Below, piece by piece: positions 1,693 through 15,739 of a stretch of 34,067 nucleotides of DNA. Numbering within the stretch: the stretch's first letter is position 1; each line of letters starts with the position of its first letter. The DNA comes from Candidatus Sungbacteria bacterium RIFCSPHIGHO2_01_FULL_50_25 (GTDB lineage: Bacteria > Patescibacteriota > Minisyncoccia > Sungbacterales > HO2-52-23), in contig MHQD01000032.1 in NCBI GenBank assembly GCA_001822215.1, positions 1 to 34,067 of the forward strand. Direction: 5' to 3'. A model generated the notes under the pieces. The model saw nothing but the letters and a program-made list of their open reading frames with translations. It was not told the origin of the DNA and searched no databases. Position numbers and translations under genes: made by a program.

Positions 1693-2043
1693 AAGTATGC
1701 GTATATTTTATCATGGGTTTTTCGCGTACCTATCACGCTTTGCTGTGGAAAAAATGTATTCAAAATACGTACCTTTTTCGTAAATATGATTTATGCACCA
1801 AACATATATAAACCTTACTATTAAAATAATTATTCTTGTAAGGTTTATCCGGCTTAACTGAAATAAAATTATTTTTTGCTGTTTTGAAAGCAGAATTTTA
1901 TTTGTGAAAAGTGATCAATTCCGCCCTTGACAGGTTTCCGTCAAATCAAATCTATGCGAAAATCCAAACAAAATAACCGCATGTCGGCGGCTACATCTTT
2001 TCTATAAAAATATCAGAATGACTGAAAAATCAGGATTCTAGAT

Positions 2044-2154
2044 ATCAGTTAGAACGCATATGCTCCCCGTGCCGGCATACTTGCTTTTCAGGCGAGCACA
2101 CCCTTTCGCTTTCATCGACGAAAGCCAGGGCTATATTTAAACTTTCTAACCGGA
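2044..2154. repeat. possible degenerate member of the GTTAGAA...TTCTAAC inverted-repeat element family (copy E)
   Basis: Termini are atCAGTTAGAACgc (2044-2057) and acTTTCTAACCGGa (2142-2154). The 111-bp length is similar to copies A-C. There is an internal hairpin CTTTCG...CGAAAG. No flanking direct repeat is present and the termini are diverged. Confidence 0.3.
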
Positions 2155-2310
2155 GAGGGCGAGATTCAAATTCGCGATGCCGGTAAACCCCGTTAGAACG
2201 GGCGCTTTGCGAATACGCTCGCGGGAACATTCCACTCCCGCGGGCGATCGGGGGACGACCGCCGACTGGAGTCGGCGGCGCTCTAACGGGGTAAAGGTAT
2301 ACCTGCTTTT
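2151..2310 (-). pseudogene. 3' fragment of a class-II (Ser-like) tRNA, split in its variable arm by element A
   Basis: Plus strand 2151-2187 (cggagagggcgagattcaaattcgcgatgccggtaaa) joined to 2296-2310 (ggtatacctgc...) aligns with the intact tRNA-Ser at 2363-2410 (cggaggcgagaggattcgaacctctgataccggtaaaggcatactcgc). The acceptor 3' strand, T-arm (gcgag/ttcgc versus agagg/cctct) and variable arm are all recognisable. I could not find a matching 5' acceptor, D-arm or anticodon arm. Confidence 0.55.
2188..2291. mobile_element. MITE-like inverted-repeat element, copy A (104 bp)
   Basis: Termini are CCCCGTTAGAAC (2188-2199) and GCTCTAACGGGG (2280-2291), an 11/12 inverted match. It is flanked by direct TAAA (2184-2187 and 2292-2295). 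Internal hairpins are CGCGGGA-9nt-TCCCGCG (2220-2242) and CCGCCGAC-TGGA-GTCGGCGG (2259-2278). Removing the element plus one TAAA restores colinearity with the neighbouring tRNA-Ser. Confidence 0.6.
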
Positions 2311-2362
2311 ATGCACTTTTTTGCGGTCGTAAAAACTCGGGTTGTTTGTATAACGTCATCAG

Positions 2363-2449
2363 CGGAGGCGAGAGGATTCGAACCTCTGATACCGGTAAAG
2401 GCATACTCGCTTTCCAAGCGAGCGCACTAGGCCACTATGCGACGCCTCC
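2363..2449 (-). tRNA. tRNA-Ser (anticodon GGA), class II with long variable arm
   Basis: Manual fold of the reverse complement: acceptor GGAGGCG/CGCCTCC, U8, D-stem GCA/TGC with an AGTGG loop, and anticodon stem CTCGC/GCGAG with loop TTGGAAA. The variable arm is ATGCC-TTTAC-GGTAT, the T-arm is AGAGG-TTCGAAT-CCTCT and the discriminator is G. CCA is not encoded. Confidence 0.85.
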
Positions 2450-2474
2450 GCTGAGGATATTAATATATGTGCAA

Positions 2475-2507
2475 CCCGTTAAAAGCAAAGCAGTTTGCTT
2501 CTAACCC
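2475..2507. repeat. short hairpin with element-like arms (copy F)
   Basis: CCCGTTAAAAGCAAA-GCAG-TTTGCTTCTAACCC forms a 12-bp stem with one mismatch. The arms resemble the termini of copy C (CCCGTTAGAAGC). The right arm overlaps a tRNA D-loop-like fragment, so assignment to the family is ambiguous. Confidence 0.35.
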
Positions 2508-2590
2508 ACTATGCGACCTTTCCGATTTGGAAGCTCAAGGAATAACCCGCAAAAAAATGAAAACATCTATTCTGGCACTATGCGACTTTA
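2506..2590 (-). repeat. two extra partial copies of the 5' acceptor/D-arm segment of tRNA-Ser
   Basis: CACTATGCGAC occurs at 2433-2443 (inside the tRNA), 2507-2517 and 2576-2586. Read on the minus strand, copy 2 is GGAAAGGTCGCATAGTGGG, compared with GGAGGCGTCGCATAGTGGC in the tRNA. Neither extra copy continues into a foldable tRNA. Confidence 0.5.
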
Positions 2591-2599
2591 AAAAAACCG

Positions 2600-3520
2600 T
2601 TACTGCTTTTCAACTCTCATTCCAAGAAGCACGTTAACTCGTTCTTCAATCGGAGGATGTGTTGAGAATATCCGCACGATCCACGGCATCTTTTGTCCTA
2701 CTACTCGGTCAGCACCAAATGGATTTTCTAAAAATAGATGTGCGGTCGCGTTTGACGCGGTGCGAAGCGGCCGGGAATATGCGCTGATTTTTCTCAAGGC
2801 AGACGCAAGCCCCTCCGGGTAGCGCGTCAAAAGCGCTCCCGATGCATCCGCAAGAAATTCGCGCCTCCGGGAAATCGCAAAATGAAGAAGCTGCGCGATT
2901 ATCGGCGCAAGAATTGAAATCACAAGTCCAAAAAGAAGAAAAACAGCTCCTGCTCTCCCTCGATCGTTATCGCTTCCAAAACTTCGAAACAGCATGGAGC
3001 GCGTAAACATGTCGGACAAAACAGCTACAAACCCTACAAGCACTACTGCAACGGTTGAAACAAGCATGTCGCGATTACCGATGTGCGAGAGTTCATGCGC
3101 GAGCACTCCCTCAAGCTCCGAACGATCAAGAATTTCCAAGAGTCCGGTTGTTACAACAACAACTGCGTGCTTCGCATTCCGGCCCGTTGCAAATGCATTG
3201 GGTGCCACGTCGTCAATAATGAAGAAACGCGGCATGGGGAGGCCCGCAGTAATCGAAAGATTTTCTAGAATGCGGTAGAGCTCGGGATGCTCTTTCATCT
3301 CGATTGGTTTTGCGCGGTGCATTGCAAGAACAAGCTTATCAGAAAACCAGTAGCTGGCCACATTCATGAAAACGCTGAAAAACACCGCAATATATAGTAT
3401 TCCCGGATTGCCATATGCCTGGGCGAAAACCCATCCCACTCCGATGACAATGCCGAAAAAAGCCGTCATCAAGAGCCATGTTTTCCAAATATTGTATGTG
3501 CGCTGTGTATATAATGTCAT
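2600..3520 (-). CDS. htpX: M48-family membrane zinc protease HtpX
   Basis: 306-aa ORF with several hydrophobic helices and the HExxH motif in VLAHELSHIGNRD. The N-terminus and overall length are HtpX-like. Confidence 0.9.
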   Translation of the reverse strand: MTLYTQRTYNIWKTWLLMTAFFGIVIGVGWVFAQAYGNPGILYIAVFFSVFMNVASYWFSDKLVLAMHRAKPIEMKEHPELYRILENLSITAGLPMPRFFIIDDVAPNAFATGRNAKHAVVVVTTGLLEILDRSELEGVLAHELSHIGNRDMLVSTVAVVLVGFVAVLSDMFTRSMLFRSFGSDNDRGRAGAVFLLFGLVISILAPIIAQLLHFAISRRREFLADASGALLTRYPEGLASALRKISAYSRPLRTASNATAHLFLENPFGADRVVGQKMPWIVRIFSTHPPIEERVNVLLGMRVEKQ

Positions 3521-3534
3521 GAAATATGTGTAAA

Positions 3535-3637
3535 TTCCGTTAGAACAGGCGCTTCGCGATCGGCTGATGGGAGCAGTATACTCCCGTAAGCTTATTCTAT
3601 CTCCACCGCCGACTCTGTCGGCGGCGTTCTAACGGGG
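3535..3637. mobile_element. MITE-like inverted-repeat element, copy B (103 bp)
   Basis: Termini are TTCCGTTAGAAC (3535-3546) and GTTCTAACGGGG (3626-3637). It is flanked by direct TAAA (3531-3534 and 3638-3641). It is colinear with copy A: a shared GGCGCTTYGCGA block, a GGGAG-7nt-CTCCC hairpin (3569-3585) and CCGCCGA-CTCTG-TCGGCGG (3606-3624). Confidence 0.6.
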
Positions 3638-3730
3638 TAAAAAGTTTTCCCCAAAATTATATCAGAAATTTCCTTCCCCCGCAATCCCCCGCTGTGGTAC
3701 CATTGCTATACTATAGCAGTCTCACACAAA

Positions 3731-4639
3731 ATGATCAGGGAAAGAAAAATTGACGGCATCTCTTGGATCTCGATTGTGCACCCGGGGAAAAAAGACATTG
3801 ATACGCTCCGCAACCAATTCCCCGATATCCACCCCTTGATCCTTGAAGACCTTCGCACACCAACCATCCGGCCTCTTTCCGAAAACTACGAACGGGAAAT
3901 TTATATGGTCATGCATTTCCCGACTATCATTTCTGGAAAGAATAAAGTTCACGCGCGAGAAATTGATTTTATCCTAAGGAAAAGAATACTCGTCACGGTC
4001 CAATACGATTCGATTCCTGAGCTTGAAGAAATTTGGAACGAATCTGAACATGAGACAACCGAGCAATACGGAAAAACACCCGCGCATCTTCTCTACTATC
4101 TTCACAAGCGGTTTTTCTCGCGCGCGCTTACGGATCTTGACCAAATACAAGCGGAGATCGACAAGGCAGAAGAAGAAGTATTTGCAGGCCGAGAAAAAGA
4201 AATATTTACCGATATCACGCTTCTCCGAAGAGACGTTCTTGATTATTCCAGGACAATGAAACCCCAGCGAATGGCGCTCGAATCCCTGCTTGAACAGGGA
4301 ACCGAACTCTATGGCGAGCTCGCGCGCCCCTTTTTCAGCGGAACATTGTCAGAATACATCCGCGTCGCAAATCTCATCGAAAACCACAAGGAGGCGCTCG
4401 ATGCGCTTTACGATACCGCGTCTTCCCAGCTTGCGACAAAGACAAACGAAATCATGCGGGTATTTACCATCCTTGCATTCATCAGTTTCATCCCTACCGT
4501 AGTCGCAAATATTTACGGAATGAATGTCGTAAACATTCCTTTTTCAGACCACCCAATCGCGTTCTGGATTGTCATCGGATTTATGATTATTACGACTGTG
4601 GCGATCTACCTTGTACTCAAATGGCGGAAACTTGTATAA
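3731..4639 (+). CDS. corA: CorA-family magnesium/cobalt transporter
   Basis: 302 aa, with two C-terminal TM helices and the CorA signature YGMN (VANIYGMNVVNIPF). Confidence 0.9.
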   Translation: MIRERKIDGISWISIVHPGKKDIDTLRNQFPDIHPLILEDLRTPTIRPLSENYEREIYMVMHFPTIISGKNKVHAREIDFILRKRILVTVQYDSIPELEEIWNESEHETTEQYGKTPAHLLYYLHKRFFSRALTDLDQIQAEIDKAEEEVFAGREKEIFTDITLLRRDVLDYSRTMKPQRMALESLLEQGTELYGELARPFFSGTLSEYIRVANLIENHKEALDALYDTASSQLATKTNEIMRVFTILAFISFIPTVVANIYGMNVVNIPFSDHPIAFWIVIGFMIITTVAIYLVLKWRKLV

Positions 4640-4649
4640 TACCGCCACA

Positions 4650-6065
4650 ATGATTCGGCTATACAATACGCTCACGCGAAAAATCGAAGATTTTAAACCC
4701 ATCCGGAAAGGACGGGTCGGTTTATACACCTGCGGGCCAACGGTCTATAATTTCGCTCACATAGGAAACCTGCGCACATATATATTTGAGGATATCCTTC
4801 GCCGGACACTCGAATACTCCGGATATAATGTTACGCACGTCATGAACATCACGGATGTCGGGCATTTGACGTCAGATGCGGACGCGGGCGAGGACAAGCT
4901 TGAAAAAGGCGCAAAACGCGAAGGGAAAACCGTCTGGGATATTGCGCGCTTCTATACGCGCGCGTTTCTCAAAGATATCCGCGCGCTTAATATCAAACGG
5001 GCGCAAAACATCGTCCCCGCGACATCCGCAATACGAGAACAGATTGCCGTCATAAAGAAACTTTTCGCCGGCGGCTTTGCATACGAAACACCCGAGGCCG
5101 TTTATTTTGACGTGTCAAAATTTAGGAATTATACAAAACTTTCCCGCCAGCGCCTTGAGGAAAAAAAAGCGGGCGCACGCGCCGAAGTCATCGAAGACCC
5201 GGGGAAAAAACATCCGCAGGATTTCGCGCTCTGGTTCAAGCGCGTCGGAAAGTTCAAAAACCACGTGATGCATTGGAATTCGCCCTGGGGTGACGGATTT
5301 CCGGGCTGGCACATTGAGTGCTCCGCAATCTCAACTTCGCGGCTCGGCCAGCCTTTTGACATCCACACGGGCGGAGTGGATCATATTGCGGTGCACCACA
5401 CGAACGAAATTGCGCAGTCAGAAGGCGCATTCAAAAAACCTCTTGCGCGATTCTGGATGCACGGCGAATTTCTCCTTGTCGCGGATTCAAAAATGGCAAA
5501 ATCAGCGGGAACGTTTCTTACGCTTCAAGAACTTGAAAAAAAAGGATTTAATCCGCTTGCATTCCGCTATCTTGTCCTCACCTCGCATTATCGCTCAAAA
5601 TTGAATTTTACATGGGAATCGCTTCGGGCGGCAGAACACTCCCTTGAGCGGGTCCGTAGTTTTATCAAAACACTCCTCTCGGAAAGAAAAAAACCAAAAC
5701 ACCCTGTCTCTCTCGAAAAATATAGAAGCCAGTTTGACGATGCGCTCAAAAGCGATCTCCAAACCCCGCAGGCGCTTTCAGTACTTTGGAAAATCATCAG
5801 CGATTACAACACGCAATCGGAGTCGTTCGACGCAAAAAAGATTCTCGCGCTTCTCTACGATTTTGATCAAGTCCTTGGGCTTCATTTTACCGCAATCAAA
5901 AAAGACGCTATCCCGGAAACAATACGCGATATGGCAATGAAACGCGAGGTAGCGCGCAGGAATAAGGATTGGGATAAAGCCGACAAATTCCGCGCCAAAA
6001 TTGAAACAGCGGGATTTGTTATATTCGATACCCCAGACGGTTCAAAACTCCGAAAGAAACAATAA
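4650..6065 (+). CDS. cysS: cysteine--tRNA ligase
   Basis: HIGH motif (AHIGNLRT), KMSKS motif (KMAKSAG) and a CysRS-type N-terminus MIRLYNTLTRKIEDFKP. The track ORF starts at 4611 and overlaps corA. The ATG at 4650 gives the conserved N-terminus. Confidence 0.93.
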   Translation: MIRLYNTLTRKIEDFKPIRKGRVGLYTCGPTVYNFAHIGNLRTYIFEDILRRTLEYSGYNVTHVMNITDVGHLTSDADAGEDKLEKGAKREGKTVWDIARFYTRAFLKDIRALNIKRAQNIVPATSAIREQIAVIKKLFAGGFAYETPEAVYFDVSKFRNYTKLSRQRLEEKKAGARAEVIEDPGKKHPQDFALWFKRVGKFKNHVMHWNSPWGDGFPGWHIECSAISTSRLGQPFDIHTGGVDHIAVHHTNEIAQSEGAFKKPLARFWMHGEFLLVADSKMAKSAGTFLTLQELEKKGFNPLAFRYLVLTSHYRSKLNFTWESLRAAEHSLERVRSFIKTLLSERKKPKHPVSLEKYRSQFDDALKSDLQTPQALSVLWKIISDYNTQSESFDAKKILALLYDFDQVLGLHFTAIKKDAIPETIRDMAMKREVARRNKDWDKADKFRAKIETAGFVIFDTPDGSKLRKKQ

Positions 6066-6168
6066 TTCGCGATTTCCCCAGCTTCTCCATCTGTCTTCCA
6101 GAGACCGATGTTGCATTCATTCCCTGCTGCGCGCTATGCTTTAGGGAGGATTTTTTCTCATCATCTTT

Positions 6169-7533
6169 ATGCAAAACTCCGAAAGGAAACCTGTCGAGAT
6201 TCGCATGCCTCCGCAGAATATCGAAGCGGAGATGTCGGTACTCGGGTCTTTGATGCTCGATAAGGACTCGATTTTCAAGGTGGCTGATTTTTTGACACCG
6301 AAAGATTTTTATAAGCCAATCCACGCCGATATCTATGAGACAATGTCCGACCTCATGCAGAGGCGAGAGCCGATTGATATTGTAAGCGTTACAAACCGCC
6401 TGAAAGAGCAAGGGGGACTCGACGGAGTCGGAGGATCGAGCTATCTTGCATCGCTCGTAAACACCGTTCCGACCGCATCACACGTTGCGCACTATGCCTC
6501 GATTGTGAAAAAGAAGCGGCTCTTGCGGGACCTCATTGACGCATCCCAGCATATCATCGAACTCGGATATAGAGAAACTGACGACGTCGATACAATAATT
6601 GACGAGGCGGAGCAGCGGATTTTTGCCGTCGCGCGCGGAACGATCAAACAAGAATTTCAAGCAGTCCATACCGCGCTCGCCGAGGCGTGGGACAGGATCG
6701 AGCGCCTTCATAAGGACGACGGAATGCTCCACGGCATTCCCACGGGTTTCCCTGATCTCGATAATTATCTCGCTGGCCTTCAGCGTTCCGACCTTATCGT
6801 ACTTGCCGCGCGGCCGAGCCTCGGGAAAACGGCACTCGCATTGAATATTTGCCGTAACGTCGCGATTGACCATAAAAAGGCGGTTGCCCTTTTCAGCCTT
6901 GAGATGTCGAAAGAACAGCTCGTCGACCGCCTCATCGCGTCAGAAGCGAACGTCGACCTTTGGCGCCTGCGCACGGGGCGGCTCCGAGAGGACCAAAATG
7001 AATTCTCGCAGATCCGTGATGCAATGAGCGTCTTATCGGACGCGCCGCTATACCTTGATGATTCGCCGTCGCTTTCGGTGATGGATATTCGCGCAAAGGC
7101 GCGCCGCTTCCAGGCAGAGCGCGACCTCGGGCTTGTCATGATCGACTATCTCCAGCTCATCCAGGGCACAGGACGAGTGGAGTCCCGCGTACAAGAGGTT
7201 TCCGAGATATCCCGGGCGCTCAAAGCAATGGCAAAGGAACTCAATGTGCCGGTTCTTGCGGTTTCCCAGCTTTCCCGCGCAGTCGAGATGCGCCCGTCGT
7301 CCCGCCCGAAACTTTCTGATTTGCGCGAGTCGGGGTCAATCGAACAGGACGCTGACGTCGTCATGTTTATCTATCGGGAAGACAAAGTGCGCGAAAACTC
7401 CGACAAAAAAAACATTGCGGAAATACTTATTGAGAAGCATCGGAACGGCCCCACGGGAAAAATCGACCTCTATTTCCATGAGGAAACTGCGTCTTTCCGC
7501 TCGATTGATAAACACTACGATAGCGCCGTATAA
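6169..7533 (+). CDS. dnaB: replicative DNA helicase DnaB
   Basis: 454 aa with the DnaB N-terminal domain (PPQNIEAEMSVLGSLML), Walker A (ARPSLGKT) and the RecA-like core (LVMIDYLQLI, SQLSRAVE). The length leaves no room for an intein. Confidence 0.93.
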   Translation: MQNSERKPVEIRMPPQNIEAEMSVLGSLMLDKDSIFKVADFLTPKDFYKPIHADIYETMSDLMQRREPIDIVSVTNRLKEQGGLDGVGGSSYLASLVNTVPTASHVAHYASIVKKKRLLRDLIDASQHIIELGYRETDDVDTIIDEAEQRIFAVARGTIKQEFQAVHTALAEAWDRIERLHKDDGMLHGIPTGFPDLDNYLAGLQRSDLIVLAARPSLGKTALALNICRNVAIDHKKAVALFSLEMSKEQLVDRLIASEANVDLWRLRTGRLREDQNEFSQIRDAMSVLSDAPLYLDDSPSLSVMDIRAKARRFQAERDLGLVMIDYLQLIQGTGRVESRVQEVSEISRALKAMAKELNVPVLAVSQLSRAVEMRPSSRPKLSDLRESGSIEQDADVVMFIYREDKVRENSDKKNIAEILIEKHRNGPTGKIDLYFHEETASFRSIDKHYDSAV

Positions 7534-7541
7534 AAATAGAA

Positions 7542-8171
7542 ATGCTCTATCCGAGGCCCGTACAAGACCTTATTGACCTTTTTGCGAAATTTCCCGGCAT
7601 CGGCCCGCGGCAAGCGGCTCGGTTTGCTTTTTTTTTGTTGCGGGACGCAACGTCTCTCGTACCACTTTTAAAATCTTCTTTGGATGACATAGAGAAAAGC
7701 GTCGCGTTTTGCAAAGAATGTTTCCGAGCAACGGAAAAAAATGGTACGCCATTACTCTGCGCATTTTGCCGCGACTCGAAGCGAAATGCATCGCTTATCG
7801 CAGTTGTCGAAAAAGAATCTGATATGCAAAATATCGAGAAAACCGGCGCATTTCGCGGCAGATATCATATCCTCGGCGGCACGATTTCTACGCTTGACCC
7901 TGAATCCCCAAAACGACTCCATTTACGCGAGCTCCACGCCCGCGTCTCGAAAGCGCTCAAAGACATGCCGGAGACTGAAGTCATTCTTGCAACCGCCGCG
8001 ACCTCCGAAGGAGACATGACCGCGCTCTATATCGAGCGTGTCCTCTCGCCTCTCAAAAACGGCAACCCGAAACTCAAACTGACGCGCCTTGGCCGCGGGC
8101 TTTCCGCCGGGTCAGAGCTCGAATACGCGGACGATCAAACGCTTCGAAATGCCCTGAAAAACCGGGGGTAA
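7542..8171 (+). CDS. recR: recombination protein RecR
   Basis: 209 aa with the HhH N-terminus LIDLFAKFPGIGPRQAARFAFFLL, the C4 zinc finger CKEC...CAFC, and a Toprim-like remainder. Confidence 0.92.
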   Translation: MLYPRPVQDLIDLFAKFPGIGPRQAARFAFFLLRDATSLVPLLKSSLDDIEKSVAFCKECFRATEKNGTPLLCAFCRDSKRNASLIAVVEKESDMQNIEKTGAFRGRYHILGGTISTLDPESPKRLHLRELHARVSKALKDMPETEVILATAATSEGDMTALYIERVLSPLKNGNPKLKLTRLGRGLSAGSELEYADDQTLRNALKNRG

Positions 8172-8210
8172 CAAAAAACCCTGGCGATACCATGGGGTTA
8201 TTTTGTGTTT
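8172..8210. terminator. bidirectional hairpin between convergent recR and rplU
   Basis: CCCTGG-cgata-CCATGGG forms a 6-bp stem with one bulge. An A-run lies upstream and a T-rich run downstream on the plus strand. On the minus strand the stem is followed by TTTTTTGT. Confidence 0.4.
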
Positions 8211-8515
8211 ATTCCGGTTATTTCAACTTCAGTATAATGCTGACGATGACCTTTTTTCTTTCGCCACCGCGCTTTTGGACGATATTTAAACACGATGACT
8301 TTTCGTGCGCGCGCATGCAAAAGTACTTTGGCGTGTATGGATGCTCCAGGAATCGTTGGAGTCCCGATTATGATATTATCACCGTCATCAACCGAGAGAA
8401 GAACCTCGGTACACACAAAATTCCCGCCCTCGGCGGCATCGATTTTCTCGATCTTCAATTTTTTGCCCGGGCTCACAATATACTGTTTTCCGCCGGTTCT
8501 GATAACAGCCCACAT
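8198..8515 (-). CDS. rplU: 50S ribosomal protein L21 (bL21)
   Basis: 105 aa. MWAVIRTGGKQYIVSPGKKLKIEKI is the canonical bL21 N-terminus. Confidence 0.9.
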   Translation of the reverse strand: MWAVIRTGGKQYIVSPGKKLKIEKIDAAEGGNFVCTEVLLSVDDGDNIIIGTPTIPGASIHAKVLLHARARKVIVFKYRPKARWRKKKGHRQHYTEVEITGINTK

Positions 8516-8523
8516 ACTGTTAT

Positions 8524-8552
8524 AGGATAAAAAATAAAACGCTTTTTGTCAA
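8524..8552 (-). promoter_or_regulatory. sigma70-like promoter for rplU
   Basis: On the minus strand: TTGACA (8552-8547), a 17-bp spacer, then TATCCT (8529-8524). The -10 ends 8 nt upstream of the rplU ATG. Confidence 0.45.
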
Positions 8553-8578
8553 CAAAATACGGCCCATGAGCCGTTTTG
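8550..8578 (-). terminator. intrinsic terminator after the 8581..9339 gene
   Basis: On the minus strand: ACGGC-TCATGG-GCCGT followed by ATTTTGTTG. Confidence 0.45.
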
Positions 8579-8580
8579 GT

Positions 8581-9339
8581 TTAGACAGGTACGTGCGCGG
8601 ATGCGGGATCAGAAAGCTTTTCGAGCCGGCTCCTGTTAGCGCGAAGGAGCAGGAGCGCCCGCTCGAGTACTGCGCTGACTTCATCAAATTTCGGCATTTC
8701 GCTTCTTACCCGAGATAAAAGATCATTAATTTGATTTCTGATTTCCCAGAGATTCGGACTCTTTTGGAACAACTCGCGGCGAAGAGTCGCCGCGTCATCG
8801 CGCGCCACGATCTTCGCGTTGATTTCAATGTGCAATATCTCCTCAAGCTCGCGAATCTTTTTATCCCGCACTTCGAGTGAATATCGATCGTAATCCGACG
8901 TGCGCTTCCGAAGGAGATACAACACCACGATTCCAACAAAGATGATAACCGCGGCAACAGTTTTCATTATCATATCCACATACCCCCATGCGATTTCCTT
9001 CTCCTCCGAAAGGAGTTTTACCGTTGTCTCAAGAGACCGAATCGTCATTACGCCGGATATAATATCGAGTCGAAGGTCGTTCGAAGTGTGCGTGTGGCGG
9101 GCCTCGACGGCCTTGAGCCGGGACGTGAGGATTGAAGCATCGCTCCGAGCGAGCGCAAGATCGCGCTTTGCACTCGCGTTCTTCGCTTCAAGCGCGCGAA
9201 CGTAGTCAAAACACGTACGGGCGTCATAGTACTCGCCATCCGGATCGCACGGATTTTGCTGGGCCTCGGCAACCGATGGAAAGAACCCGAGCGCGAAGGA
9301 AACGATGACACTTGCGAAAACTCCACCGAAGAATCGCAT
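8581..9339 (-). CDS. hypothetical secreted/membrane coiled-coil protein
   Basis: 252 aa. A strong SD (AAGGAGGA) lies 4 nt upstream of the ATG. The N-terminal signal peptide is MRFFGGVFASVIVSFALGFFPSVAEA. There is a central TM (VAAVIIFVGIVVLYLL) with heptad-like charged regions on both sides. I recognise no family. Confidence 0.6.
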   Translation of the reverse strand: MRFFGGVFASVIVSFALGFFPSVAEAQQNPCDPDGEYYDARTCFDYVRALEAKNASAKRDLALARSDASILTSRLKAVEARHTHTSNDLRLDIISGVMTIRSLETTVKLLSEEKEIAWGYVDMIMKTVAAVIIFVGIVVLYLLRKRTSDYDRYSLEVRDKKIRELEEILHIEINAKIVARDDAATLRRELFQKSPNLWEIRNQINDLLSRVRSEMPKFDEVSAVLERALLLLRANRSRLEKLSDPASAHVPV

Positions 9340-9404
9340 ACGTCCTCCTTCGTATATGTCGGAATCAAACTAGCACAATTCTCGAAATAAATCAATGCCG
9401 AATG

Positions 9405-10496
9405 CTATTCGATTTCTTTGGGGCCTGAAACCGTATTCGCCTCGATCCCGATTTTTTCTCCGGTTATTCTCAAAAAATCCTTGTCTATTTTCCCGAACTC
9501 CTTATACGCGTGATTATACATGCTTACCGTCGTGCCAAGATTTTTCCCCAGCTTATCAAAATATATGTTATACCCGTCCAAGTGTTTCTTTAGATTCTCA
9601 ACCTGCCCGATAATCTCGCGCGCTTGCTCGGAAATTTTTTGATTTTTGAGCCCCTGGAGAACAGTCTGAAGATACGCAAGAAACGAAGTGGGAGAAACGA
9701 CGATAACCCGTTTTTGCCCCGCGTAATGAATCAAATTGCGAGTGTCGTCTCCGATCGCGCCCACTTTATTGATAAGCAAATCATAGTATACGGCTTCAGA
9801 CGGAATGAACATGAAGGCAAAATCCATGGTGTCTTCCTCCGGCTTTACATATTTTGACGTTTCATCAATCCGATTTTTTAAGTCCTGAACAAATGCGCTT
9901 TCGTAGCGCTTTCGCTCGAGCGCGTCTTTTGCTTCGAGAATCCTGTTATAATTTTCCAAGCTGAATTTTGAATCAATCGGAATAATCCGCTTGTCGACGA
10001 AAACAACCGCGTCGACAATCACGTTATTCGAAAACGGATACTGCATTTTGTAGGAACCCGGCGGAAGCACATTTTTGAGCACGGTCTCAAGATAATATTC
10101 GCCCAATATCCCTCTTTGTTTCGGATTTTTCAAAATATCCTGGAGGCTCTGCAATTGGCTCGAGAAATTTACCACCTGCCTGTTTGTTTCGTCGAGTTTT
10201 GTTAATTTCTCCGTAACCTCACTGATAAGGCGGGCTGATTGTCCTGAAATTCCCTGAATCAAATCGGCTGTTTTACCCAATTGTTCCTGGTTTGAACGGT
10301 GCGTCTCGCTTAGCTTTATATCTATCAAATGCCTCAATTCACGATTCTGCTCTGAAAGATGGCTAAGACGCTCCATAAGCGCGCCTTCCTTCTGTGACTC
10401 CTCCGTGTCCCCTTTTCCCCCGCGAGAAAGATACCAAAAGATCCCTCCGAAACCGAGTACTAAAACCGCTAATATAAGCCAAAATTGGACGTCCAT
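9405..10496 (-). CDS. rmuC: DNA recombination protein RmuC
   Basis: 363 aa with an N-terminal TM, a long coiled coil and an RmuC-type C-terminal region (FAFMFIPSEAVYYDLL...VVSPTSFLAYLQTV). Confidence 0.88.
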   Translation of the reverse strand: MDVQFWLILAVLVLGFGGIFWYLSRGGKGDTEESQKEGALMERLSHLSEQNRELRHLIDIKLSETHRSNQEQLGKTADLIQGISGQSARLISEVTEKLTKLDETNRQVVNFSSQLQSLQDILKNPKQRGILGEYYLETVLKNVLPPGSYKMQYPFSNNVIVDAVVFVDKRIIPIDSKFSLENYNRILEAKDALERKRYESAFVQDLKNRIDETSKYVKPEEDTMDFAFMFIPSEAVYYDLLINKVGAIGDDTRNLIHYAGQKRVIVVSPTSFLAYLQTVLQGLKNQKISEQAREIIGQVENLKKHLDGYNIYFDKLGKNLGTTVSMYNHAYKEFGKIDKDFLRITGEKIGIEANTVSGPKEIE

Positions 10497-10523
10497 AAAG
10501 AGTTTTTTACGCTTTTTTACCTT

Positions 10524-10552
10524 GACTTTTTTGCCTCCCGGATGTATACTTG
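10524..10552 (+). promoter_or_regulatory. near-consensus sigma70 promoter
   Basis: TTGACT (10524-10529), an exactly 17-bp spacer, then TATACT (10547-10552). Confidence 0.45.
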
Positions 10553-10557
10553 GATAA

Positions 10558-10593
10558 GATCACGGGTTAATGTGCCGTGATTTTTTGTTTTCC
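10558..10593 (+). terminator. terminator-like hairpin immediately downstream of the promoter
   Basis: ATCACGG-gttaatgtg-CCGTGAT (10561-10583) is followed by TTTTTTGTTTT (10584-10593). The run of Ts is on the plus strand only. Confidence 0.4.
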
Positions 10594-10828
10594 GGGGTTT
10601 TATGGAATTCGATGGTTCGACCCTAATCCCCTGGCAAGCTCAAAAAAGCGACGTGTATAAAATCTGAGCTAATGTGAGGATTGCCAGAAAGCCCCAGCCG
10701 GGGAGTACTCGCAAACCTCTTATTATATTAGCGCATATCTTTCAGTAATAATACTTACGGTTGCACTCTTTGTCCCGCAAGAGGCGAAAGAAGCGGAAAA
10801 CTCCCCTTTCCACGCCTATATTCATCCG

Positions 10829-11167
10829 GTGCCCCACACCCTCCCGCTGGAGGAGCGAAAGGCAATGGATGTAAAAGAATTCGCGGAACGCACCGCGCGC
10901 GAGGCTGGCCTTCGGCCGGACCTTATTCAAAATCTTATCCGATGCGAGTCCGAATGGAAATTGGATGCAAAAGGCGACAACGGCGCCTCATACGGCATTC
11001 TTCAATTCAAGGCGCCGACATTTGCGCTTTTTTCAAAAAAGTACGGTCTTGAAGATCTTGAGATAGAAAACCCCTATCACCAGATCGAGCTTGCGTCGCT
11101 CATGATCCGAGACGGCTATATCATACACTGGAAAAACTGCGGCAAGAAACTCGGACTCATAAAATAA
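10829..11167 (+). CDS. lytic transglycosylase (SLT-domain) protein; true 5' end probably upstream
   Basis: The catalytic-Glu context LIRCESEWKLDAKGDNGASYGILQF is typical of SLT/lysozyme-like folds. The frame is open back to 10673 and encodes a hydrophobic anchor (ISAYLSVIILTVALFV), but it has no ATG, GTG or TTG before 10829. Confidence 0.7.
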   Translation: MPHTLPLEERKAMDVKEFAERTAREAGLRPDLIQNLIRCESEWKLDAKGDNGASYGILQFKAPTFALFSKKYGLEDLEIENPYHQIELASLMIRDGYIIHWKNCGKKLGLIK

Positions 11168-11175
11168 CAACCAAT

Positions 11176-11210
11176 CGAAAAGCTCCTACGGACTACCGAG
11201 GAGCTTTTCG
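11176..11210. terminator. perfect 12-bp hairpin between convergent SLT and phosphomannomutase genes
   Basis: CGAAAAGCTCCT (11176-11187), an 11-nt loop, then AGGAGCTTTTCG (11199-11210). The right arm overlaps the last codons of the minus-strand gene. The flanking T-runs are only weak. Confidence 0.45.
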
Positions 11211-12556
11211 ATTTCCGCTCGTTTCTCGCGAAGAAGCTCCTCGGTATCGGCTTCGATTACAAGCCGCACAACAGGCTCTGTATTCGACGCTCGGATATTA
11301 AACCACCAATCGGGAAATTCGATTGTGACGCCGTCAATCTCGCCCACTCGGACGTTTGGCGCGCGGCGATATCGATTCCGGGCGTCCGCAAGCGCTCGCG
11401 CTTTGTCGCGAACCGTAACATTCAATTCGCCGGTCGATGCAAACTGAATGTCCGGCTCAACAATTTTTGAAACAGGCAAGGGCGACCCCGAAACATATTC
11501 TGCAAATGCAAGGAACGCAAAAATCCCGGAGTCGTCATACGAAAAATCCTTGAAAAAGTAATGGCCCGAGCGCTCCACGCTTATGGGCGACGCGAATTTC
11601 CTCATAGCCGTCTGAAGAAACACGTATCCGCGCCGCGAAAGCTCCACCCGCCCGCCGTGTTCCTCGATCGCGCGGCGCACGGCGCGCGACGTATCAACGG
11701 GGAGGACGATGACCGCTTTTCTCTTCTTCTCGAGCGCCTTGAGCGCGATGGGAAGAAACACGAACTGCGAATCGAGCAGATTCGCTTTTTCATCAAAAAA
11801 CATGACCCGATCGCCGTCCCCGTCAAATGCAACTCCAAAATTGTATTTTCCCCGCCCGAGCTCCGCTTTTATCCATTTTTGGGATTCGGGAAGAAGCGGA
11901 TTCGGCGGATGTTTTTTAAACGAGCCATCGGGCTCAAAAAAAAGCGGAGTGTATTCGATGTTCGGAAAAAGAGAAAGAATCTGCGGAAGAAAAAGCGCGG
12001 TACTCCCCCCTCCGGCGTCGATCGCGACCCGAATGCGCCGCTTTATGGAAATATGTTTTGAAAAAAATGAAATATATTTTTCCCGGTAACTATTGTTGAA
12101 CTCTATGTTCCCGAGCATTTTTGCGCGCCGCGTCTTGCCGCGAGACGCGATTGCGCGTATCTTCTCAAGTCCGGTGCCAAGAAAGATTGACTCCCCCGAC
12201 CGCCCGCGGATTTTCAGCCCGTTATACTCTCGGGGGTTATGCGATGCCGTGACCATAATTCCGCCGTCCGCTTTTCTCTGATGCATGAGAAAGCAAAAAA
12301 ACGGACTTGTCCCCACTCCGGCGTCAATCACATCGCTTCCCTGAACGATAATCCCGCGCACAAGCGCATCGCGAAGGGACTCCGACGAAATACGAACGTC
12401 GCGGCATACAAAAAACCTTCCTCTCTTTTTGTGAAGTTTTTTCGTTATATACTCCGCGGTAGCGTATCCGATCCTTTCGACAGCATCCTCATCGAGTTCG
12501 CTTGGATATTTGCCGCGGATATCGTATGCTTTGAAAATGTCTGGATTGATATTCAG
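11186..12556 (-). CDS. phosphomannomutase/phosphoglucomutase (alpha-D-phosphohexomutase family)
   Basis: Active-site loop TASHNP (IMVTASHNPREYNG) and the Mg-binding loop FDGDGDR. The track ORF starts at the GTG at 12361. The same frame stays open to 12580 and encodes the conserved N-terminus NINPDIFKAYDIRGKYPSELDEDAVERIGYA. The only plausible starts are CTG (12556-12554), ATC (12550-12548) or ATT (12538-12536). Confidence 0.85.
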   Translation of the reverse strand: MNINPDIFKAYDIRGKYPSELDEDAVERIGYATAEYITKKLHKKRGRFFVCRDVRISSESLRDALVRGIIVQGSDVIDAGVGTSPFFCFLMHQRKADGGIMVTASHNPREYNGLKIRGRSGESIFLGTGLEKIRAIASRGKTRRAKMLGNIEFNNSYREKYISFFSKHISIKRRIRVAIDAGGGSTALFLPQILSLFPNIEYTPLFFEPDGSFKKHPPNPLLPESQKWIKAELGRGKYNFGVAFDGDGDRVMFFDEKANLLDSQFVFLPIALKALEKKRKAVIVLPVDTSRAVRRAIEEHGGRVELSRRGYVFLQTAMRKFASPISVERSGHYFFKDFSYDDSGIFAFLAFAEYVSGSPLPVSKIVEPDIQFASTGELNVTVRDKARALADARNRYRRAPNVRVGEIDGVTIEFPDWWFNIRASNTEPVVRLVIEADTEELLREKRAEIEKLLGSP

Positions 12557-12631
12557 AACGTTAAAACCGTTATAATCGTTCTAAACGATTTGGGCGATTA
12601 GAACGGCTAAAACAATTCTAACAGAAAAACT

Positions 12632-13801
12632 ATGTCACTCAAAATAGGTATCGTAGGCCTCCCGAACGTGGGTAAATCCACCCTGTTTCAGGCGCTCACG
12701 CGCCAATCGGTTGAAATCGCAAACTATCCGTTTGCGACAATCGACCCGAATATAGGCGTTGTACCCGTTCCCGACGAACGGCTCCTAAAGCTCGCCCAAA
12801 TGTCAAAATCCAGAAAAATCGTTCCGGCGGCAATTGAATTCGTTGATATTGCGGGCCTTGTCAAGGGCGCCTCAGTTGGCGCGGGACTCGGAAACAAATT
12901 TCTCACAAATATCCGGGAAGTCGACGCAATCGCCGAAGTAGTGCGCGTATTCGAGGATAACAATATCATTCACGTCTCCGGAAAGACAGATCCTATATCT
13001 GATATTGAAACAATTTCCTACGAGCTTGCGATGAAAGATCTGGAGACCGTTTTGAAGCGCCTCGAATCTGTGGAGCGCGACGTGCGCGCAGGAAAAAAAG
13101 AAGCTATCGCGGAAAAAGCCGTTCTCGAAGTGCTCCGAAGCGCTTTTGACACCGCAACACCTGCACGAAGCATCCGCCCACACGGAAAAAACGAAGCCGA
13201 GGAATTTGATGCTGTCGCGCACGCGCTCTCGCTCCTCACCGCAAAGCCGATTCTCTTTGTGCTGAATGCTTCGGAAAGTATGGTTCAAGAAAGTTGGAAA
13301 CCCGAAGGCGCTCTTTTGAAAGCGCTTTGCGGTGCCGAGTACGCCGTCATAAGCGCAAAAATCGAATCCGAGCTCGCCGAACTTCCAGACGAAGAACGAA
13401 AAGAATTTCTTTCGTCACTCGGACTTCGAGAAAGCGGACTTGCCCCGTTAGAGATCCGTTCCGCCGAAGGCGGAACGGCAGATACCAGAGGCATCTTATC
13501 TCTAACGGGGCTAGATCAACTGATACGCTTGAGCTACGAAACGCTCGCCCTCATGACTTTTTTTACCACAGGAGAGGACGAATCACGCGCGTGGACCATT
13601 CCAAAGGGATCAACCGCCCCGCGGGCGGGCCGCGCAATACACTCGGATTTTGAAGAAAAATTTATTCGGGCTGATATCATAGAATGGAATAAGCTCCTCA
13701 AGATCGGATCATGGACGCGCGCCCGCGAACTTGGAACACTCCGCACCGAAGGGAAAGAATATATTGTAAAAGACGGGGACGTAGTTGAATTTAAAATATA
13801 G
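12632..13801 (+). CDS. ychF: ribosome-binding ATPase YchF, carrying a 24-aa insertion
   Basis: G1 motif GLPNVGKST, the YchF helical insert, and a TGS-like C-terminus (RAWTIPKGSTAPRAGRAIHSDFEEKFIRA...EGKEYIVKDGDVVEFKI). Confidence 0.93.
   Translation: MSLKIGIVGLPNVGKSTLFQALTRQSVEIANYPFATIDPNIGVVPVPDERLLKLAQMSKSRKIVPAAIEFVDIAGLVKGASVGAGLGNKFLTNIREVDAIAEVVRVFEDNNIIHVSGKTDPISDIETISYELAMKDLETVLKRLESVERDVRAGKKEAIAEKAVLEVLRSAFDTATPARSIRPHGKNEAEEFDAVAHALSLLTAKPILFVLNASESMVQESWKPEGALLKALCGAEYAVISAKIESELAELPDEERKEFLSSLGLRESGLAPLEIRSAEGGTADTRGILSLTGLDQLIRLSYETLALMTFFTTGEDESRAWTIPKGSTAPRAGRAIHSDFEEKFIRADIIEWNKLLKIGSWTRARELGTLRTEGKEYIVKDGDVVEFKI
13443..13510. mobile_element. MITE-like inverted-repeat element, copy D (68 bp), in-frame inside ychF
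   Basis: Perfect 13-bp termini CCCCGTTAGAGAT (13443-13455) and ATCTCTAACGGGG (13498-13510). An internal perfect 10-bp hairpin is CCGTTCCGCC-GAA-GGCGGAACGG (13456-13478). It is flanked by CTTG (13439-13442) and CTAG (13511-13514). Confidence 0.65.
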
Positions 13802-13833
13802 CGGCATGACCCCGCAAGCGCACACCTTATAAA

Positions 13834-13862
13834 GAAAAAACGCCCAATTGACAAGGGCGCGT
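13834..13862. terminator. bidirectional terminator between ychF and the DUF5317-like gene
   Basis: CGCCC-aattgacaa-GGGCG (13841-13859). On the minus strand it is followed by TTTTTTCTTT, and on the plus strand by cgTTGTATTAT. Confidence 0.55.
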
Positions 13863-13866
13863 TGTA

Positions 13867-14391
13867 TTATCGATTTTGCCGTGCACGCGTCTCAGGAATC
13901 ATCAGCGCACAACCAAGCGCGAGCAGGACATCTCCCATGCTTATGATATTCCCGAATGGCCCTGGAATCCAATCCCCGAGAAAGTTGAAAGATGTCATAA
14001 AGGACATGAGCGTATAATCGGCGTTTTCAAGAAACACATCTTTGACAAAGACCGGCATCCGCATGCCATTCGTGAGCTTCGCAACAGTATTTGCAAACGC
14101 TCCGCACCAGAATATCAAGAGACTAATCCCCGCATTGTGCAAATTTCCAACCGCAAAGATGAGAAGCATGAAAACAGAAACCGCTTTCGTTACATAGATA
14201 TCATGTGGAATCCCAAAAACCGCAAGCACCGAGGATAAGAACGCGGAGAGAAAATAGAACAAAAAGAGCCACATCGGCATTGTTTTTTTTGAAAACCAGA
14301 GGTAGAGCGCCACCCCGAATGGTATGGAAAGAACGAATCGAAATGCGTACGACGAATGGAGAAACTCGGTAAGATGCCCGACAATCTCCAT
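13867..14391 (-). CDS. polytopic membrane protein, DUF5317-like
   Basis: The ATG at 14391 is preceded by the SD AAGGAGAG. There are several TM helices. The motifs FANTVAKLTNGMRMPV and ISMGDVLLALG resemble my recollection of DUF5317. The longer track ORF (to 14487) would leave 2 bp before the divergent rpsF. Confidence 0.6.
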   Translation of the reverse strand: MEIVGHLTEFLHSSYAFRFVLSIPFGVALYLWFSKKTMPMWLFLFYFLSAFLSSVLAVFGIPHDIYVTKAVSVFMLLIFAVGNLHNAGISLLIFWCGAFANTVAKLTNGMRMPVFVKDVFLENADYTLMSFMTSFNFLGDWIPGPFGNIISMGDVLLALGCALMIPETRARQNR

Positions 14392-14489
14392 GTGCTCTCC
14401 TTCTCGAGGATATTGCATTCTGTTGTAGCGTACCCGGATAATTGCGTCAACCCTTGCTTTTCCCCATAAAACTGATACACTAATCAAAT

Positions 14490-14927
14490 ATGGAAAAAGA
14501 GCCGAAAAAATACGAAATCACGTATCTCCTCGCGCCTTCCATCGCAGAAGATGCGCTTGCAAATACCGTTCAAGCAATTCACACGGCCATCGAGGAAGAA
14601 AAGGGTTTTATTTCCCATTCCGAATCACCGCGGAAACGGCATCTCGCCTATCCGGTTGGAAAAGAAACAAGCGCGTATTTCGGCTGGACAAGATGCACGC
14701 TTCTCCCGAATGCGATTTCGGCTGTTGAAAAGAAAATAAAGGCAAATCCGTCCGTCATCCGGCACATTATCGTCGAAGATACGATACCCGCGATGGCGCC
14801 GCCCCGCATGCCCCGAATGATGCCTCCGACAATGCCTGCGGCACTCCCGAAACGCGAAGAAGAAGCCGATGAGCGCCTTGATCTTGAGGGACTCGATAAA
14901 AAATTGGAGGAAATACTTGGGAAATAA
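14490..14927 (+). CDS. rpsF: 30S ribosomal protein S6 (bS6) with C-terminal extension
   Basis: KYEITYLLAPSI...RKRHLAYPVGKE..AYF is an S6-like core. About 45 extra C-terminal residues are rich in P/M and then acidic residues. Confidence 0.88.
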   Translation: MEKEPKKYEITYLLAPSIAEDALANTVQAIHTAIEEEKGFISHSESPRKRHLAYPVGKETSAYFGWTRCTLLPNAISAVEKKIKANPSVIRHIIVEDTIPAMAPPRMPRMMPPTMPAALPKREEEADERLDLEGLDKKLEEILGK

Positions 14928-14937
14928 CGAACATGAA

Positions 14938-15050
14938 TCCCGTTAGAAGCTACGGCCGCTTTGCACAAAACAAATTACAAAAATTTTATTATTTTAATTA
15001 ATAACTGGCAGTATCAAAGTCAAGTAGACCGCGACCTGCTTCTAACGGGA
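14938..15050. mobile_element. MITE-like inverted-repeat element, copy C (113 bp) between rpsF and ssb
   Basis: Perfect 13-bp termini TCCCGTTAGAAGC (14938-14950) and GCTTCTAACGGGA (15038-15050). It has an AT-rich core. It is flanked by direct repeats TGAA (14934-14937 and 15051-15054). Read more broadly, ATGAAT(C) occurs on both sides. Confidence 0.65.
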
Positions 15051-15505
15051 TGAATCTCAACAAAGCATTCATTATGGGGAATCTCACGCGCGACCCGGAG
15101 CTCCGACAGACTCCTTCGGGACAAGCCGTCTGCTCATTCGGAGTTGCAACAAACCGCTTTTATACCGATCAATCAGGGCAAAAACAAAAACAGGCAGAAT
15201 TCCATAACGTAGTCGCGTGGGGAAAACAGGCGGAGATTGTAAACCAATATCTGAAAAAAGGTAGCTTGATCTTTGTCGAGGGCCGCATTCAGACGCGAAA
15301 TTGGCAGGATCCGCAAGGCACGAAGCACTACCGGACCGAGGTGATTGCAGAACGCGTTCAGCTGGGCCCGCGGCTTGGCGGCGGGATCCCGGCGCAGCAG
15401 CAAGAACCAGCGCCGCGGTCAGAGGCGACAAAAGAGGACGAGACCCCGATTATCGAGCTTCCGACTGAAGACGACGGAATTGATGTGAAGGATATACCTT
15501 TTTAA
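15050..15505 (+). CDS. ssb: single-stranded DNA-binding protein
   Basis: OB-fold N-terminus MNLNKAFIMGNLTRDPELRQTPSG, a Gly/Pro/Gln-rich linker, and the acidic C-terminal tip DGIDVKDIPF. Confidence 0.92.
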   Translation: MNLNKAFIMGNLTRDPELRQTPSGQAVCSFGVATNRFYTDQSGQKQKQAEFHNVVAWGKQAEIVNQYLKKGSLIFVEGRIQTRNWQDPQGTKHYRTEVIAERVQLGPRLGGGIPAQQQEPAPRSEATKEDETPIIELPTEDDGIDVKDIPF

Positions 15506-15526
15506 CGATGTATAATTTCTAACGGG

Positions 15527-15739
15527 ATGAAAGAGCAAATAAAAAAACAGTGCTATTTTTGCACGACAAACCGCCCGATCGACTATAAGGACGCTGATCT
15601 CTTAAAGCGCTTTATGTCAGCGGGAGCAAAAATCTATTCGCGCAGGAAATCTTTCCTCTGCGCATACCACCAGCGGGAATTCTCGCAAGCCGTAAAACGA
15701 GCGCGCTATCTAGCGCTCGTACCATACACGTCGAGGTAG
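15527..15739 (+). CDS. rpsR: 30S ribosomal protein S18 (bS18)
   Basis: 70 aa. CYFC...IDYKDADLLKRFMS...KIYSRRKS..C...QREFSQAVKRARYLALVPY is S18-like. It sits in the conserved rpsF-ssb-rpsR arrangement. Confidence 0.9.
   Translation: MKEQIKKQCYFCTTNRPIDYKDADLLKRFMSAGAKIYSRRKSFLCAYHQREFSQAVKRARYLALVPYTSR

Follow-up and report, generated by a model that had tools for sequence, protein, structure and literature searches.

The ychF gene of Candidatus Sungbacteria bacterium RIFCSPHIGHO2_01_FULL_50_25, a member of the Patescibacteriota, contains 72 extra nucleotides that very probably are a non-autonomous DNA transposon of the MITE type (miniature inverted-repeat transposable elements) together with the 4-bp duplication of its target site (TSD). 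The gene lies in a 34,067-nt stretch of DNA (contig MHQD01000032.1 of assembly GCA_001822215.1, positions 1 to 34,067 of the forward strand), which we call the window. The insertion adds 24 residues to the GTPase YchF, and its termini recur in other genes and genomes of the candidate phyla radiation (CPR) and of several other phyla.

The encoded protein (P0001) was matched by the Pfam families MMR_HSR1 and YchF-GTPase_C. The 72 nt consist of a 68-bp element and the 4-bp duplication (Table 1). The element has no coding capacity and no open reading frame (ORF) for a transposase. Its terminal inverted repeats (TIRs) are 13 bp long, or 14 bp when G13442 and C13511 are counted. The single T-to-A difference between the two TSD copies falls on the third base of a leucine codon and is synonymous. 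When the 72 nt are deleted, GGA CTT GAT CAA is read again. Since 72 is a multiple of three, the frame of ychF stayed open, and the 24 inserted residues read APLEIRSAEGGTADTRGILSLTGL. By translation, the peptides spanning the insert would be ESGLAPLEIR and GILSLTGLDQLIR. The RNA of the 76-nt stretch is predicted to fold with -45.9 kcal/mol (z = -8.6 against shuffles). The first-pass annotation, made from the letters alone, had described the coordinates, the repeats, the internal hairpin, the CTTG/CTAG flanks, the return of the G-L-D-Q motif with a synonymous leucine mismatch and the in-frame, stop-free character of the 72 nt. All of these were correct, and only the TIR could be extended. Weaker TIR-like fragments (GTTCTAAACG, GATTAGAACGG and TCTAACAG) were also seen at 12560-12625, just upstream of the ychF start.

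An empty site, which the annotation had proposed to look for in an alignment with orthologues, was found in the closest YchF genes at the level of the protein and of the DNA. A search of 5.8 billion proteins gave thousands of YchF matches. The eight closest, at 69-84% identity (84, 82, 75, 73, 71, 69 and 69% among them), have 365-366 residues, which is 389 minus 24, and align with a clean gap of 24 residues between ...ES and GLDQLIR. A homologous segment in unrelated YchF proteins had been named as evidence against an insertion; it was present at this position in none of the 23 relatives aligned. The ychF DNA of the two closest relatives (L007 and L008) is 81-83% identical to the window, with proteins 82-84% identical. 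It reads AGCGG(T/C)CTT directly followed by GACCA, with a gap of exactly 72 nt and one CTTG. The ancestral ychF site therefore held a single CTTG.

Nine contigs, which come from at least six independent assemblies, encode the identical 389-residue YchF. Six fetched contigs were 99.8-99.98% identical to the window over 3-21 kb without gaps, and all of them had the insert. In addition, all five element sites of the window were fixed in each contig covering them. In the sampled population, the allele with the insert is fixed. The empty junction GAAAGCGGACTWGATCAACTGATACG had no match among the metagenome contigs of JGI. A 19-mer of the ychF copy had no match there either, so the organism is absent from that collection and the negative result for the junction is uninformative.

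YchF of the window matched solved YchF structures with E = 3e-97, and the alignment to the Haemophilus influenzae structure 1JAL breaks at 265/266, between EEPGL and NRVIR. An AlphaFold2 model built on a 24-sequence alignment had a mean predicted local distance difference test score (pLDDT) of 79. Residues 269-290 were modelled as coil with a pLDDT below 50 between the helices 253-262 and 293-304, and both flanking domains were confident. This modelling, which the annotation had suggested as a check for a surface linker, indicates that the 24 residues most likely form a disordered surface loop before the last helix of the G domain (GLDQLIR...) and that the protein still folds. We infer that the loop is translated and tolerated.

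Other palindromic inserts were observed in ychF as well. In two other CPR genomes (L129:2888-2950, protein P0011; L130:3785-3851, protein P0088), the gene contains in-frame copies of a second family with the TIRs CCCCCACACCA and TGGTGTGGGGG, each at a different position. The L130 copy has the TSD CGTG/CGTG, and both inserts encode similar peptides, PHT(N/K)RA...GVG. The perfect 22-bp palindrome GACCTGCCTGCGCAGGCAGGTC in ychF at L130:3430-3451 encodes PDLPAQAG, a peptide that is also present in P0029. Long inserts in the same loop region of YchF as PDLPAQAG were seen in P0077, P0083, P0104 and P0120.

Table 1. Location of the ychF element, of further copies in the window, and of selected copies in other loci (L numbers).
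Feature	Location	Strand	Remarks
ychF, insertion host	12632-13801	+	ORF, 389 aa; G-domain and TGS motifs all intact
MITE-like element in ychF	13443-13510	.	68 bp; C-CCCGTTAGA ... TCTAACGGG-G at the ends; not present in L007 and L008
Left TSD copy CTTG	13439-13442	.	ancestral; single in orthologues
Left TIR CCCCGTTAGAGAT	13443-13455	.	10-nt family core and 3 element-specific bases
Internal hairpin CCGTTCCGCC-GAA-GGCGGAACGG	13456-13478	.	perfect, 10 bp; from the sequence
Right TIR ATCTCTAACGGGG	13498-13510	.	perfect 13-bp partner of the left TIR
Right TSD copy CTAG	13511-13514	.	one T-to-A change
Intergenic copy, 104 bp	2188-2291	.	perfect TSD TAAA at 2184-2187 and 2292-2295; folding z = -6.4
Intergenic copy, 103 bp	3535-3637	.	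degraded left end TTCCGTTAGA; TSD TAAA at 3531-3534 and 3638-3641
Copy at ssb start codon, 113 bp	14938-15050	.	TSD TGAA at 14934-14937 and 15051-15054; A15050 is the A of the ssb ATG
Solo right end ATTTCTAACGGGA	15514-15527	.	finishes on the A of the rpsR start codon (15527-15529); left partner missing
In-frame host RsmH	L018		Pfam
In-frame host RfbB-like dehydratase	L024		Pfam
In-frame host HypE-like protein	L035		Pfam
In-frame host Fpg, two overlapping copies	L040		Pfam
In-frame host Sua5/TsaC	L061		Pfam
In-frame host TrpF	L062		Pfam
In-frame host exonuclease III (Xth)	L064		Pfam
In-frame host IF-2, 28-nt mini-copy	L111		Pfam
In-frame host SecA	L113		Pfam
ATG-to-GTG start codons	L049:4084, L051, L059:5479, L088, L092:3452, L095:7809		

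Further copies are present in the window. The 8-mers CCGTTAGA and TCTAACGG occur four and five times, respectively, and make up four left-right pairs that are 48-95 nt apart and one solo right end. The paired pattern CCGTTAGA-N41-101-TCTAACGG was found at four sites in the 34-kb window and at none in 100 dinucleotide-preserving shuffles. Matching termini at 2188, 3535 and 14938 had already been noticed in the first pass, and the solo end was added here. The copies at 2188 and 3535 have a common interior, and the same subfamily also occurs in L075. Apart from this pair, the interiors of the window copies are unrelated. When the window was compared with Rfam 15, only tRNAs were found at the gathering score, and nothing was found at E <= 1 over 2000-15700. 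What may be an older, degenerate copy (CAGTTAGAACG ... TTTCTAACCGG, two core mismatches) was seen at 2044-2153, directly upstream of the intact 2188 copy.

The paired-end pattern was then scanned against one genome per GTDB species. At least 120 stretches with at least about 130 non-redundant copies were obtained from more than 100 other genomes, and the family figures below refer to the copies among the matches listed. By our arithmetic, about 8,000 pattern matches are expected by chance in 596 Gb. The listed matches are not due to chance because the conservation extends outward past the searched 8-mers, with C at -1 in 92%, Y at -2 in 95%, A at -3 in 77% and T at -6 in 74%. About seven loci without this extension look like chance matches; they come from Alkalihalobacillus, Galactobacter, Eubacterium, an rpoB gene and a few others. 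The recurrence of the terminal motif, on which the first-pass reading depended, was observed both in the window and in these genomes. The hosts among the matches listed belong to about 20 named CPR lineages and, outside the CPR, to metagenome-assembled genomes (MAGs) of Omnitrophota, Planctomycetota (including Brocadia), Desulfobacterota, Cloacimonadota, WOR-3, Edwardsbacteria and Stahlbacteria. One host is a single-cell genome. Complete copies were also seen in 17 contig stretches from IMG/VR (L131-L147); IMGVR_UViG_3300038429_000794 has three. These viral-classified contigs could be vectors of spread or misclassified CPR contigs.

The TIR of the family reads YCCCGTTAGA followed by NNN, and the length of the perfect repeat peaks at 13 nt (66 of 136 copies). 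The positions 11-13 vary among copies and are symmetric within a copy in 93, 93 and 83%, followed by an abrupt drop to about 30% at position 14. This covariation implies either many sub-lineages or selection or correction acting on the 13-bp stem. The 4-nt flanks were identical on both sides in 70 of 137 copies (51%). Per position, flank identity was 0.79, 0.69, 0.66 and 0.74 within the four bases and 0.45 and 0.44 just outside. These values show a duplication of 4 bp, and a TSD of 6 bp was ruled out. Among the perfect TSDs the target was R-TNNA-Y, where the hyphens mark the borders of the duplicated bases, with T in 66 and A in 64 of 70. TGAA, TTCA, TAAA and TTTA were the commonest, and TTAA was absent. 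The sizes range from 28 nt, which is two TIRs alone, to at least 125 nt, and the interiors are unrelated among copies. Tandem or nested copies were seen at L055:2944-3103, L074:7675-7894, L040:5742-5862 and L107:3171-3272; they include two identical 76-nt copies head to tail before a pilin-like gene and one copy inside another within fpg.

Two of the three frames traverse both TIRs without a stop codon, as read from the sequence; the frame with TAG in the left TIR is the one with TAA in the right TIR. All copies were screened for ORFs that span the element, which detects open-through copies only, and the hosts were confirmed by Pfam. Nine further in-frame hosts were found besides YchF, ten in all (Table 1). 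The inserted peptides start with PLE or (N/D)PVR and finish with LTG or SNG(V/I), as dictated by the TIRs. Over all copies, the excess of insert lengths divisible by three (56:46:38) was not significant (chi-square, p about 0.18). Copies with flanks open in different frames were also found.

Many copies lie at start codons. One exact offset is the starting point of an ORF of 80 or more codons at 46 of 274 element ends, compared to a control of about 0.7% per offset. In these copies the last base of the element, A or G, is the first base of the ATG or GTG. About one third of the listed copies abut a true start codon (e.g. L050:2179, L032:4320 and L089:5501). In the window this is the case for ssb (15041-15052) and rpsR (15518-15529). 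The ssb product starts with MNLNKAF, which is conserved in L007 and L129. TGAA flanks both the solo right end at rpsR and the left end of the ssb copy, and the two ends, 586 nt apart, bracket ssb; this is either what is left of a copy that was deleted or a composite arrangement. Ten of the start-abutting ORFs were checked with Pfam, and in nine of them the first domain begins at residue 3-6 of the protein and at position 1-2 of the profile. The nine supported starts belong to TopA, RuvC, a GalU-like protein, a KdsB-like protein, Gmd, MurC, DnaA, RsmD and a carbamoyltransferase. The rplA start codon is abutted by a family copy likewise.

The duplicated upstream start codon was kept in 37 of the 45 start-abutting copies analysed. 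In six cases (Table 1), an element that ends with G turned the ATG of the gene itself into GTG, and the upstream duplicate stays ATG, so the insertion altered the start codon of the downstream gene. Translational coupling was considered as a general rule, with an upstream ORF that runs from the duplicated ATG and ends in TAA(-7) or an ATGA overlap. It was rejected, since it fits only 16 of 37 copies, counted when the upstream ORF ends at or next to the start codon or reads through in frame, and 21 of 37 stop deep inside the element. A displacement of the Shine-Dalgarno sequence was dropped as well, as the relative with the empty site (L007) also has none upstream of ssb. Two explanations can be given for the start-codon habit. 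It may reflect the target preference, in which A-TGNA-Y fits an ATG followed by a second codon xAx, together with purifying selection at other sites, or it may reflect a role in expression.

Taken together, the TIRs, the fixed 4-bp TSD, the palindromic target and the empty sites indicate transposition by a DDE-type enzyme, which would act in trans by a cut-and-paste or copy-in route. Such a transposase would recognise the 13-bp TIRs, that is YCCCGTTAGA and the three variable symmetric bases. It would cut the target with a 4-bp stagger, preferentially at R-TNNA-Y, and repair would duplicate the four bases. In ychF, the element would have landed at CTTG in one of the two stop-free frames, so that element and duplication extended the protein by 24 residues. 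As for the kind of enzyme, the IS1380/piggyBac type is only a guess by analogy, from 13-bp TIRs that start with CCC and a 4-bp TSD of the form T...A. It is a doubtful though conceivable extension of this guess that the elements are the partners of a bacterial piggyBac/IS1380-like transposase that cuts R-TNNA-Y with a 4-nt stagger and excises seamlessly, with reversible insertions in essential genes and at start codons. Insertions in genes or start codons such as those of dnaA, topA, ruvC, murC, rplA, ssb and rpsR could then be reverted. Across the whole genome, the elements would generate new protein loops and switches of expression, including changes of the start codon from ATG to GTG, in ultra-small CPR bacteria and other phyla, and would be exchanged between phyla of similar groundwater and sediment metagenomes.

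Several observations weigh against a MITE insertion in ychF. About 1.1 Mb of fetched loci were searched and yielded neither an autonomous copy nor a transposase with these ends. A tblastn search of these loci with the ISEcp1 transposase gave no match, in a small search space and with a distant query. No TIR pair 0.4-4 kb apart enclosed a transposase in the same loci; two pairs with matched TSDs were the ends of separate window copies. Solo ends are almost absent from the fetched loci. The ychF TSD is identical at three of four positions, and CTTG is a minority type that departs from the favoured TNNA target; a perfect TSD is missing in half of the family copies. Within the fetched loci, nothing closely resembles the interior of the ychF copy, and a search for sibling copies by the encoded peptide, with a duplicated 48-residue query, gave nothing at E <= 10. 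A hairpin of this stability within the coding part of an mRNA might be costly. Finally, an allele of the same species with an empty site, which would have pointed to recent mobility, was not seen.

Four other explanations were weighed. That the 24 residues are a native, lineage-specific loop of YchF or an assembly artefact has next to no probability. YchF proteins of the CPR do vary in length, but nothing more speaks for this. The closest relatives lack exactly 72 nt, the perfect TIRs are common to the intergenic copies, and the insert is identical in six assemblies from different samples; the orthologue alignment, the empty sites in the DNA and the multiple assemblies refute both versions. 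Introns, inteins, IS200/IS605 derivatives and known Rfam RNAs were rejected on anatomy. A wild-type YchF could also be obtained if the hairpin were removed, either after transcription, for instance through a cut at the 13-bp stem followed by ligation, or post-translationally, and the frame would then be irrelevant. The stem-loop is very stable, its base lies exactly at the insertion boundaries, and selection for pairing would also give TIR positions 11-13 that are variable yet complementary within a copy. However, features of inteins or introns and a match in Rfam are missing, and all ten verified intragenic hosts are in frame and stop-free, which is needed for translation and not for RNA excision, with the screen seeing open-through copies only. 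We know of no bacterial mechanism that excises such hairpins from mRNA and religates the ends, which also counts against removal, and we consider it very improbable.

It is quite improbable, too, that the insertion inactivated or crippled ychF and that the gene is a young, open-looking pseudogene of a dispensable YchF. The site is close to the junction of the G domain and the TGS domain, and ychF is not strictly essential in many bacteria, which counts for such a loss. However, the residues invariant across 24 YchF proteins are all kept, 389 codons are open and the identical allele is present in six assemblies. In the model, the insert is a disordered loop that stands by itself between confident domains, and the unrelated in-frame palindromic inserts in other loops of other CPR YchF proteins suggest that the fold is tolerant. 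We also regard it as unlikely that the elements are structured RNA or DNA modules maintained by the host, such as 5' regulatory hairpins, rather than selfish elements, with the ychF copy as a by-product. The many copies at one exact offset from a true start codon, the stem of exactly 13 bp with symmetric variable positions and the same ends across phyla would fit such modules. In contrast, the 4-bp flank duplications, the empty sites and the palindromic target are signatures of transposition, the interiors are unrelated, and copies also occur within coding sequences and as tandem or nested arrays. The elements might have gained a function later on, and such modules are compatible with mobility. 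A mobile palindromic element tolerated as an in-frame insertion, as the first-pass annotation had proposed, is supported by the empty sites, the TSD and the family copies.

Two other groups of repeats were observed in the window. At 5-1212, the diverged direct repeats D2, D3, D7 and D15, with spacings of 267, 291, 438 and 591 nt, suggest a gene with repeated domains at the left end. At 11173-11246, two perfect inverted repeats, one of 15 bp and one of 13 bp with AGGAGCTT cores, overlap the 3' end of a phosphoglucomutase-like gene.

Genomes of the CPR/Patescibacteria measure about 1 Mb and are usually described as streamlined. Dense mobile palindromes that cross phyla lie in genomes described in this way, including that of an ultra-small groundwater CPR bacterium. 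The family copies are natural insertion experiments on the tolerance of protein loops. They also affect gene calling and annotation in MAGs, through false extensions at N termini, duplicated start codons and outliers in length. The 13-bp TIRs and the R-TNNA-Y target provide a handle for finding the transposase and for testing horizontal exchange between phyla of similar environments.

When compared with known systems, the elements share with the repetitive extragenic palindromes (REPs) and bacterial interspersed mosaic elements (BIMEs) of the REP-associated tyrosine transposases, and with the palindromes of IS200/IS605, that they are small, abundant and hairpin-forming. Those have neither a TSD nor true TIRs, whereas here a 4-bp TSD and perfect TIRs are found. 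REPs and BIMEs are imperfect palindromes of 20-40 bp, and REPs carry a GTAG or CGTC tag (PMC3733652). They were ruled out by the TSD, the CCCGTTAGA ends and the larger sizes of the elements.

The piggyBac and prokaryotic IS1380 transposons are similar in that their TIRs begin with CC(C) and are about 13-14 bp long and that their 4-bp TSD has T as the first and A as the last base. ISEcp1, whose ends CCTAGATTCTACGT and ACGTGGAATTTAGG were read in L148, has a TSD of 5 bp. The target found here is TNNA and not the strict TTAA, and no such transposase was found beside any copy in the fetched loci with ISEcp1 as the tblastn query. The comparison data give TTAA as the target, with TAAA and TCAA as reported variants (PMC10813416).

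The classical MITEs, such as Correia, ERIC, QMITE1 of Coxiella and those of Anabaena (PMC10969869, PMC5896051), are likewise non-coding and multicopy, have TIRs and a TSD, and are mostly intergenic with occasional in-frame fusions. The family described here differs in its TIR sequence, has no known parent insertion sequence, is spread unusually widely among phyla and has copies down to 28 nt. A 2024 review of prokaryotic MITEs names the Rickettsia palindromic elements (RPEs), QMITE1, ERIC and the Anabaena MITEs as earlier in-frame cases, and the CPR is absent from it (PMC10969869). The first-pass annotation knew of no such family in genomes of this kind, and our full-text search for MITEs in the CPR, for the motif and for RPE-like elements in Patescibacteria or MAGs found no paper that describes it.

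The closest likeness suggested by that annotation was to the RPEs. As summarised in PMC10969869, Ogata et al. 2000 described many of these short palindromes per genome, a sizeable fraction of them in frame in housekeeping genes. Both families are multicopy palindromes found in frame in unrelated housekeeping genes, with an added peptide that is apparently compatible with folding. In contrast to the RPEs of Rickettsia, the hosts here are CPR/Patescibacteria, Omnitrophota, Planctomycetota and others, and the elements have 28 to about 125 nt instead of about 100-150. They have sharp 13-bp TIRs, a clear 4-bp TSD and a target consensus, and many of them sit on start codons. Their interiors are unrelated, and only the peptide ends encoded by the TIRs are shared (PLE...LTG or PVR...SNG). 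With nine further in-frame host genes, the resemblance fits as an analogy at the level of the family, and membership among the RPEs is not claimed. In conclusion, elements of this kind are known, whereas novelty seems to lie in the family itself, in its range of hosts and in its habit of sitting on start codons.

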